Positions 12,223 through 12,462 of a stretch of DNA of 58,949 nucleotides are shown piece by piece. A program made the position numbers and the translations under genes. This stretch comes from Escherichia phage ECO95 1-6-1, in the sequence record OR845257; one strand, given 5' to 3'. Positions within the stretch are counted from its first letter, which is position 1. The number at the start of each line of letters is the position of its first letter. The notes under the pieces are model-generated. The model did no database searches, was not told the origin of the DNA, and saw only the letters and a program-made list of their open reading frames with translations.

Positions 12223-12462
12223 CTTACTTGAAAAAGTTACCCGGTTGAAAAATTTTGAACGACGCGGCCAGTCCTTACTTCAAAAACCTACCCGGCTGAC
12301 GGTTTTGTCCACCAGCGTCGGGGCAATTTCACCCGGCCGACGGGCTTACTTGAAAAACCTGTCCGGTTGTCGTTGCGACGTTCCGCGCTTACTTGAAAAA
12401 GCTACCCGGTTGAAGCCCGGCGGCCCGGCCACCCGCCTTACTTCAAAAAGTCATCCGGCTGA
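12223..12462 (+). repeat. array of five 26-bp direct repeats CTTACTT(G/C)AAAAA(G/C)nTnnCCGG(T/C)TGn with 17-45 bp variable spacers
   Basis: copies at 12223-12248, 12274-12299, 12345-12370, 12388-12413, 12437-12462, between divergent promoters. Confidence 0.7.

Follow-up and report, generated by a model that had tools for sequence, protein, structure and literature searches.

What is the function of the repeat array that lies between two divergent promoters of Escherichia phage ECO95 1-6-1? The array is located in a 760-bp intergenic region of sequence record OR845257, whose full 58,949 bases are the window analyzed here, with a leftward promoter (P_L) on one side and a rightward promoter (P_R) on the other. 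The original prediction, made from the letters of the sequence, described five 26-bp direct repeats at this location and offered a transcription-factor binding array, an origin, a partition or packaging recognition site and a repetitive small RNA as possible roles. The element acts at the DNA level: it is untranscribed, under selection and directional, and it is tied to P_R and to the gene of a DUF7609 protein, with an IHF-type site alongside. It is almost certainly a docking site for a DNA-binding protein and is best filed with the clustered direct-repeat protein-binding sites of phage control regions. A transcriptional or architectural switch ranks first among the readings considered, and the favored proposal, tentative and at somewhat less than an even chance, is a cis-acting DNA element whose asymmetric 25-bp units, of iteron or operator type, are bound by a protein and govern the early-to-middle switch. 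A literature search found no description of the motif in either orientation, or of repeats, origins or promoters at this place in Chi-like phages, and the Chi genome paper does not mention the array.

The five direct copies, all on the + strand, occupy 12223–12461 and have the form CTTACTT-S-AAAAA-SNNNNCCGGYTG. Each fits the consensus CTTACTTSAAAAASNNNNCCGGYTG without a mismatch, in agreement with the predicted number and placement between the divergent early promoters. No sixth match to this consensus occurs in the window with up to three mismatches allowed, and 100 dinucleotide-preserving shuffles yielded 0.00 matches. Repeat 1 (12223–12247, CTTACTTGAAAAAGTTACCCGGTTG), for which a homologous first repeat is found in other genera, is followed by repeat 2 (12274–12298, CTTACTTCAAAAACCTACCCGGCTG), repeat 3 (12345–12369, CTTACTTGAAAAACCTGTCCGGTTG), repeat 4 (12388–12412, CTTACTTGAAAAAGCTACCCGGTTG) and repeat 5 (12437–12461, CTTACTTCAAAAAGTCATCCGGCTG), the end of which is 50 bp upstream of the P_R -35 hexamer. 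The copies are 67–88% identical to the reference copy. Unit statistics were derived from 114 unique units of relatives, whose positions 1–13 had served for their selection. The information content is high at these positions and also at T16, C19, G21 and G22, which were not used for selection, and position 8 is strictly G or C. Directly outside positions 1–25 the information content collapses to approximately zero, and the unit is therefore 25 bp long, so that the predicted repeat stands but its 26-bp length does not. The start-to-start spacings of 51, 71, 43 and 49 bp correspond to gaps of 26, 46, 18 and 24 bp between 25-bp units, consistent with the spacers of 17–45 bp given earlier for 26-bp units. 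Each unit lacks dyad symmetry and lies outside the -35 and -10 hexamers of the flanking promoters. CRISPR arrays consist of near-identical, evenly spaced repeats with uniform spacers, whereas the repeats described here are degenerate and irregularly spaced, so the view that the array is not CRISPR-like is upheld; the absence of an Rfam match and of RNA reads over the homologous array of Serratia phage JS26, detailed below, agrees with it.

The 3 kb around the array match Salmonella phage Siskin (Casjensviridae, Chivirus) at 100%, and dozens of Chi-like phages are 92–99% identical to this region; by its sequence, the window belongs to Chivirus. When the complete 760-bp intergenic region served as the query of a sensitive DNA search, matches were confined to the repeat segment in Serratia phage Smarc5, Hafnia phage Enc34 and Providencia phage PSTCR9, and to the promoter segment in a Klebsiella phage. 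An array of 4–5 copies of what is essentially this 25-mer occupies the corresponding position in all four, and the 51-bp spacing between repeats 1 and 2 is kept in Chivirus, Smarc5, Enc34, PSTCR9 and Xanthomonas phage XAP3. Kokobel1 has three copies, XAP3 four, and the very distant JS26 six copies of a related unit, GGTACTTGAGAAAGCCAGCSAGACC, at 6727–7030. Three metagenomic loci, reached via remote DUF7609 homologues, retain 2–3 copies in which only TTACTTG and a GCC-G-T box are left; in the most distant of them only two copies were found, compared with 3–6 in most relatives. The relatives that possess the array thus comprise Enc34, Redjac-like, Klebsiella, Cronobacter and Xanthomonas phages, Kokobel1, JS26 and metagenomic lineages. 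From IMG/VR, a pattern scan yielded 17 loci: 16 are phage-like contigs with the array, nearly all 55–62 kb long, and the remaining one is an unrelated A/T-rich tandem repeat. The same kind of array was genuine at one of 13 loci detected in 185,579 species-representative bacterial genomes, on a phage-like contig of 58.9 kb, and no similar array is present in 5,426 complete E. coli genomes.

The comparison with related phage genomes, proposed as a check in the original prediction, showed that the position and orientation of the array are shared by all family members examined save one. The exception is Proteus phage Saba, in which the intergenic region is short and no array is found anywhere in the genome. 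Saba retains both promoters, the DUF7609 homologue and the replication genes, and the array therefore behaves as a dispensable add-on rather than core machinery. Salmonella phage STP-3 contains an HNH homing-endonuclease gene (996–1520) in place of repeats 4 and 5, leaving three repeats approximately 700 bp from the promoter. The match is interrupted similarly at the place of this insertion in phages Ariobarzanes and FSL SP-030. The spacers of different genera are unrelated. Since conservation stops at the unit edges and the spacers have diverged, purifying selection acts on the units themselves. The suggestion of a binding array acting at the DNA level is accordingly well supported, in that the motif is kept and the spacers are not, orientation and position are constant, and an IHF consensus site is nearby.

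The array is part of a conserved module with the order IHF-type site, 3–6 direct repeats, sigma-70 promoter P_R and DUF7609 gene. P_R (12512–12540, + strand; TTGACA-17-TATTGT) invariably separates the array from the DUF7609 gene, and its sequence, spacer included, is conserved across genera. The array always points toward this promoter; depending on the lineage, the last repeat ends 5 to approximately 100 bp short of the -35 hexamer, and in several the interval is 5–20 bp. A strict IHF consensus site, AATCAACGGCTTA = WATCAANNNNTTR, is located 96 bp upstream of repeat 1 (12115–12127, - strand). The IHF consensus block occurs in the same orientation in eight lineages, 107–133 bp upstream of the array in Smarc5, XAP3, two further lineages (L018 and L031) and a JC01-like locus, and at other offsets in Enc34 and PSTCR9. 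Inspection of the sequences also revealed an A/T box, TCTCTATAAAAATT, just upstream of repeat 1 (12200–12213, + strand), and related A/T boxes preceding the repeats in the Klebsiella phage, Kokobel1, XAP3, PSTCR9 and Enc34. In every lineage, the DUF7609 gene (12583–12954, + strand, and 123 amino acids in the window) is the nearest one downstream of the array, and a homologue follows array and promoter wherever downstream sequence is available. This includes JS26 gp15 and the L011 lineage, which match the DUF7609 profile with hhalign probabilities of 92.6% and 84.5%, respectively.

Both the annotation of relatives and the original prediction raise the possibility that the region is expressed, as a small protein or as a repetitive small RNA. 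In several Chivirus genomes, an open frame of 96 codons runs through the array, and a coding sequence (CDS) has been annotated there by some: Siskin CDS_063 covers 12350–12505 of the window (51 amino acids) within an 86-residue open reading frame (ORF) at 12245–12505. The pattern of substitution is not that of a gene, as changes are spread evenly over codon positions (27/24/22 and 23/19/20) and amino acid change over the array ORF amounts to 39–45% between close relatives. The frame is broken in STP11, Smarc5, L013 and PSTCR9, the repeats lie in different reading frames because of their spacings of 51, 71, 43 and 49 bp, and the annotated 51-residue product has no Pfam or PHROG match. An RNA product fares no better. 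A permissive-threshold Rfam search of 11500–12900 gave no match, and RNA folding on both strands showed no excess stability relative to shuffled sequence (z-scores of -0.07 and -0.56). Strand-specific RNA sequencing (RNA-seq) of JS26 at 5, 20 and 40 min yielded no reads on gp14 or on any non-coding region of either strand (Malone et al., NAR 2021, PMC8754663; data under GSE186673/PRJNA746619). As JS26 gp14 (6676–6918) overlaps the JS26 array (6727–7030), and no reads mapped to it or to non-coding regions, the JS26 array is not transcribed; the transcripts that the original prediction had asked about are missing from the published data for the homologous array. The small-RNA option is thus not supported on any of the three counts, expression in either form is exceedingly improbable and already close to refuted, and the Siskin 063 and JS26 gp14 annotations are probably spurious.

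If the array works as DNA, the layout of the surrounding promoters indicates where it might act. The flanking promoters named in the original prediction are indeed the best sigma-70-type matches of the region, at 12512–12540 (+) and 11916–11887 (-). P_L (11887–11916, - strand; TTGACG-cacgccgcgtatatcaa-TTACAT) drives the terminal cluster, which is early in JS26. Together with P_R it belongs to a six-member family of sigma-70-type promoters (12512, 15824, 19026 and 21237 on the + strand; 11916 and 9515 on the - strand) that share hexamers and the spacer yACGyCGCGTrTA, so that the early leftward and the middle rightward clusters are served by a single promoter family. In JS26, the genes on the left side of the array form an early cluster and those on its right a middle one (Malone et al., NAR 2021, PMC8754663). 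Because the promoters on both sides are of one family, their timing must be set by an asymmetric cis element or process, and the early/middle boundary has no conserved asymmetric feature other than the array. As a separate observation, the 19-mer ACGCACGCCGCGTATATCA constitutes the spacer of P_L and of the second leftward promoter (11895–11913 and, on the - strand, 9463–9515). It also occurs four times in tandem at 6952–7148 (+), 250–450 bp from the right genome end and without a recognizable -35 hexamer, and these copies could be an operator or a sink for a regulator.

In the switch proposal, the repeats would be occupied by a phage-encoded binder, possibly DUF7609, whose gene is the first to be expressed from P_R. 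Together with bending by IHF, this binding would build up a nucleoprotein complex within the untranscribed stretch that separates P_L from P_R. The complex may determine when, or how strongly, the rightward (middle) operon is expressed in relation to the leftward (early) one. With repeats, promoter and first gene arranged in this sequence, the layout resembles an autoregulatory plasmid cassette. Multi-site switches between divergent promoters are represented by the p4/p6 region of phi29 (A2c–A3) and the IHF-containing operator region of Mu (Pe–Pc). As in the array region, these combine several sites and an architectural protein between divergent early and later promoters. Their sites differ in being inverted repeats or operators for known proteins that overlap or abut the promoters, whereas the array is asymmetric, has one orientation and is found 5–700 bp from the promoter. 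Lambdoid operators are likewise a poor comparison, being dyad-symmetric sites that overlap promoters and adjoin the gene of a helix-turn-helix (HTH) repressor, none of which describes the array. A search for HTH domains gave no significant match in the flanking genes and one weak, sub-threshold match in the second gene downstream.

Several observations weigh against such a switch. The binder of the array is known only as a candidate, and residues 1–107 of DUF7609 are invariant in the listed Chivirus genomes while the 3' halves of their repeats vary. The distance between array and P_R, which is 5 to approximately 100 bp and reaches approximately 700 bp with three repeats in the viable STP-3, makes for a poor fit to a classical promoter-proximal activator or repressor, and the spacings of the repeats are not multiples of the helical turn. 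Furthermore, three promoters of the same family within the rightward cluster (15824, 19026 and 21237) have no array, so that action on P_R only cannot by itself explain the middle timing of the whole cluster. The promoters' own conserved spacer could instead be the regulatory target.

In a different explanation, the array is a checkpoint or anchor for DNA entry, comparable to the T5 injection stop signal (iss). The first DNA to enter would be the right-terminal ~10% of the genome, with the early cluster expressed from its P_L, and the directional array of 25-mers would hold back the remainder until early proteins have been made. The six promoters on both sides of the array are of one family, yet in JS26 the terminal cluster is early and all beyond the array is middle or late; a physical delay would explain this for all downstream promoters at once. 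The array is polar and untranscribed, and it is situated at the boundary of the terminal ~9–11% that forms the early cluster, 5.5 kb from cos in a genome of 58.9 kb; in JS26 it is at 6.7–7.0 kb of a 64-kb record. The iss of T5, which acts in cis, is a non-coding complex of repeats, inverted repeats, palindromes and eight DnaA boxes, and it marks the boundary of the 7.9% first-step-transfer DNA (Davison, bioRxiv 10.1101/866236). The two elements share conserved, cis-acting, non-coding repeats at the inner edge of a terminal block, ~8–10% of the genome, that is expressed earliest. They differ in that the array consists of direct repeats only, with a different motif, and the DnaA boxes and palindromes that mark the T5 iss are not present. 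In lambda, the right end enters first, and the entry order assumed for Chi-like phages follows from this analogy only. No evidence was found for two-step injection by Chi-like phages, nor is two-step DNA transfer known in them, to our knowledge. In addition, Saba does without the array, and a motif that co-evolves with the phage would need a reader protein that is carried in the virion or made early. An entry checkpoint is consequently considered improbable.

The evolution of the motif bears on who reads it. Judged from the aligned units, motif drift follows the phage lineage and not the host: JS26, which has an enterobacterial host, carries the variant GGTACTTGAGAAAGCCAGC, among the most divergent motifs, yet phages apparently of other bacterial classes retain CTTACTTSAAAAA. 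Because of this drift, the reader of the array is most likely phage-encoded. Alternatively, the array might act as a decoy or structuring site that titrates a conserved host protein (for example, RNA polymerase, a defense sensor or a nucleoid protein) as phage DNA is amplified. The invariance of the 13-bp left half across phages of several host genera would suit this idea, as would the -35-like TTGAAA and the A-tract contained in that half and the IHF site nearby. Besides the lineage-dependent divergence, it has to contend with the units themselves, half of which read TTCAAA, which is not -35-like, with no conserved -10 at the right distance as far as the sequences can be read. The single real array among 185,579 bacterial genomes, moreover, is on a phage-like contig, and E. 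coli genomes have none. A host decoy is thus very unlikely, more so than an entry checkpoint. Known host-factor motifs were also compared with the unit by eye and rejected: a sigma-70 -35/-10 pair, for the reasons just given; sigma-32, since CTTGAAA occurs only in G-type units and at the wrong spacing; sigma-28, sigma-54, sigma-E, the marbox and the DnaA box; and the boxB hairpin of lambda nut, the stem of which is not conserved.

Among phage proteins, DUF7609 is suspected to be the array-binding protein by linkage only. Residues 1–107 are 100% identical in the ~100 Chivirus genomes listed, although the DNA nearby varies by up to 15%. At 50% identity, the family falls into 114 clusters, which consist exclusively of small proteins with a single domain, and most members end in the conserved acidic tail DDDEV. 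The core of ~100 residues has a SpoVS/Alba-like fold and not that of a two-winged-helix Rep, and no Rep or winged-helix similarity was detected for DUF7609. Distant homologues of the core (~40% identity) are carried by Klebsiella and Serratia plasmids; in the one plasmid context examined, the homologue adjoins a gene for an Rpn-family nuclease, an unrelated setting. Pfam and PHROG searches with ten neighboring genes returned only DUFs and unknowns. Phylogenetic profiling, in which window genes were sought that have a homologue in JS26 (array present) and none in Saba (array absent), produced one strong candidate, 10307–10789 (-), whose product is 69% identical to the JS26 protein, far above the genome average. 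This candidate was dropped, as it is also found in the unrelated myoviruses phiTE and KaOmega and in Pectobacterium phages, and its 115 matches include no Providencia and only two Klebsiella records, though both hosts have array-bearing phages. The 160-residue early protein encoded there is apparently the product of a horizontally mobile early gene.

The similarity to iteron replicons deserves separate consideration because it underlies the origin option of the original prediction, which retains some probability. According to this option, replication would start at the array or be enhanced by it in cis: a phage initiator (the C-terminal region of gp2, a Prim-Pol/SF3 helicase, or DUF7609) would bind the repeats as iterons, IHF would bend the DNA and negative supercoiling between the divergent promoters would help to melt neighboring A/T patches. 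The replicons of pSC101, F (oriS/repE), P1 (oriR/repA) and pPS10 combine asymmetric direct repeats of ~20 bp, an IHF site, a promoter and a linked first gene, and in pSC101, F and P1 the order is repeats, promoter, first gene. The array resembles them in its 3–6 asymmetric 25-bp direct repeats of one orientation in an untranscribed gap, in the conserved upstream IHF consensus site, and in the promoter directly downstream with its linked first gene. The flexible copy number and distance to P_R would also be tolerable for an origin, and the phage encodes a protein with Prim-Pol, PriCT_2 and DUF5906 helicase domains and ~180 unassigned C-terminal residues. The resemblance ends at the sequences and proteins on which iteron origins depend. 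The array region is 44–56% GC with A/T patches of only 14–26 bp, so that a long A/T-rich unwinding element is lacking, and the intergenic region contains no DnaA box. The spacings are out of helical phase, DUF7609, which adjoins the repeats, is not Rep-like, and the Prim-Pol helicase gene is separated from the array by cos and a distance of ~6.5 kb. Saba lacks an array while sharing these replication genes, and the host of the array is a virulent cos phage, described as lytic in the Chi genome paper, rather than a plasmid.

A better candidate for an origin lies 200–500 bp from cos, just downstream of the primase-helicase gene. At 6205–6493, at least nine TTGTAACY octamers in both orientations flank a 24–28% GC block (6300–6450), the lowest-GC block in this part of the genome. 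The corresponding places near cos contain CCTACGCAAT inverted repeats in JS26 and TCATTTTTTAACCG repeats in Saba, and these motifs are lineage-specific. The TTGTAACY cluster looks like a P4-style origin, although it could alternatively be cosB. In P4, ori and crr share the same octamer, which is bound by the alpha primase-helicase. The present phage has a comparable primase-helicase architecture and two repeat clusters a few kb apart; unlike those of P4, they have unrelated motifs, TTGTAACY and the 25-mer, and it is the octamer cluster that is P4-like. Given this more origin-like region and the absence of the array from Saba, an origin function of the array itself is unlikely, while being the most probable of the alternatives to the switch.

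The partition option rests on a similar resemblance, since parC of R1 and tubC of TubZRC are also direct repeats just upstream of an operon with a potential small binding product. Those systems include an NTPase, and no ParA, ParM or TubZ-type family was detected among the tested downstream genes or in the Siskin annotation, nor was a close plasmid relative found; a partition site is therefore not supported. A packaging site is unlikely for reasons of distance. The cohesive-end sequence GCTCTGCGCACC, the reverse complement of the 12-base end published for Chi, is at 6702–6713, 5.5 kb from the array. Of the four strict IHF consensus matches in the whole window, two are 50–160 bp from cos (6545–6557, + strand; 6641–6653, - strand) and resemble the I1 site of lambda cosB. 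The window is oriented opposite to the Siskin record, and the array is ~5.5 kb from the right end in virion coordinates. Bases 1–77 of the window are identical to bases 58873–58949; the window is thus a circularised assembly with an overlap, and the true genome is ~58,872 bp long.

The remainder of the intergenic region has features of its own. The GC-rich stretch noted in the original prediction is confirmed, with 75% GC at 11950–12049. Among divergent Chivirus genomes, the left, GC-rich half (11863–12222) is 86–98% conserved without insertions or deletions, and the array is less conserved (66–86%). A 47-codon ORF at 11982–12125 (+) displays a slight surplus of third-position changes.

Chi-like phages (Casjensviridae) are widely isolated and have been proposed for the control of Salmonella and Klebsiella, and little is understood of their transcription, replication and DNA entry. 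Of the non-coding elements found in the family, none is conserved as deeply as the array; its 13-bp half-site outlasts the fall of the linked protein to ~20–40% identity, and the motif can be used as a specific sequence signature for Casjensviridae-like contigs. Identification of the protein that binds it would probably assign a function to DUF7609, and would provide a first handle on the developmental switch of the family or, should one of the other readings hold, on its origin or entry mechanism.

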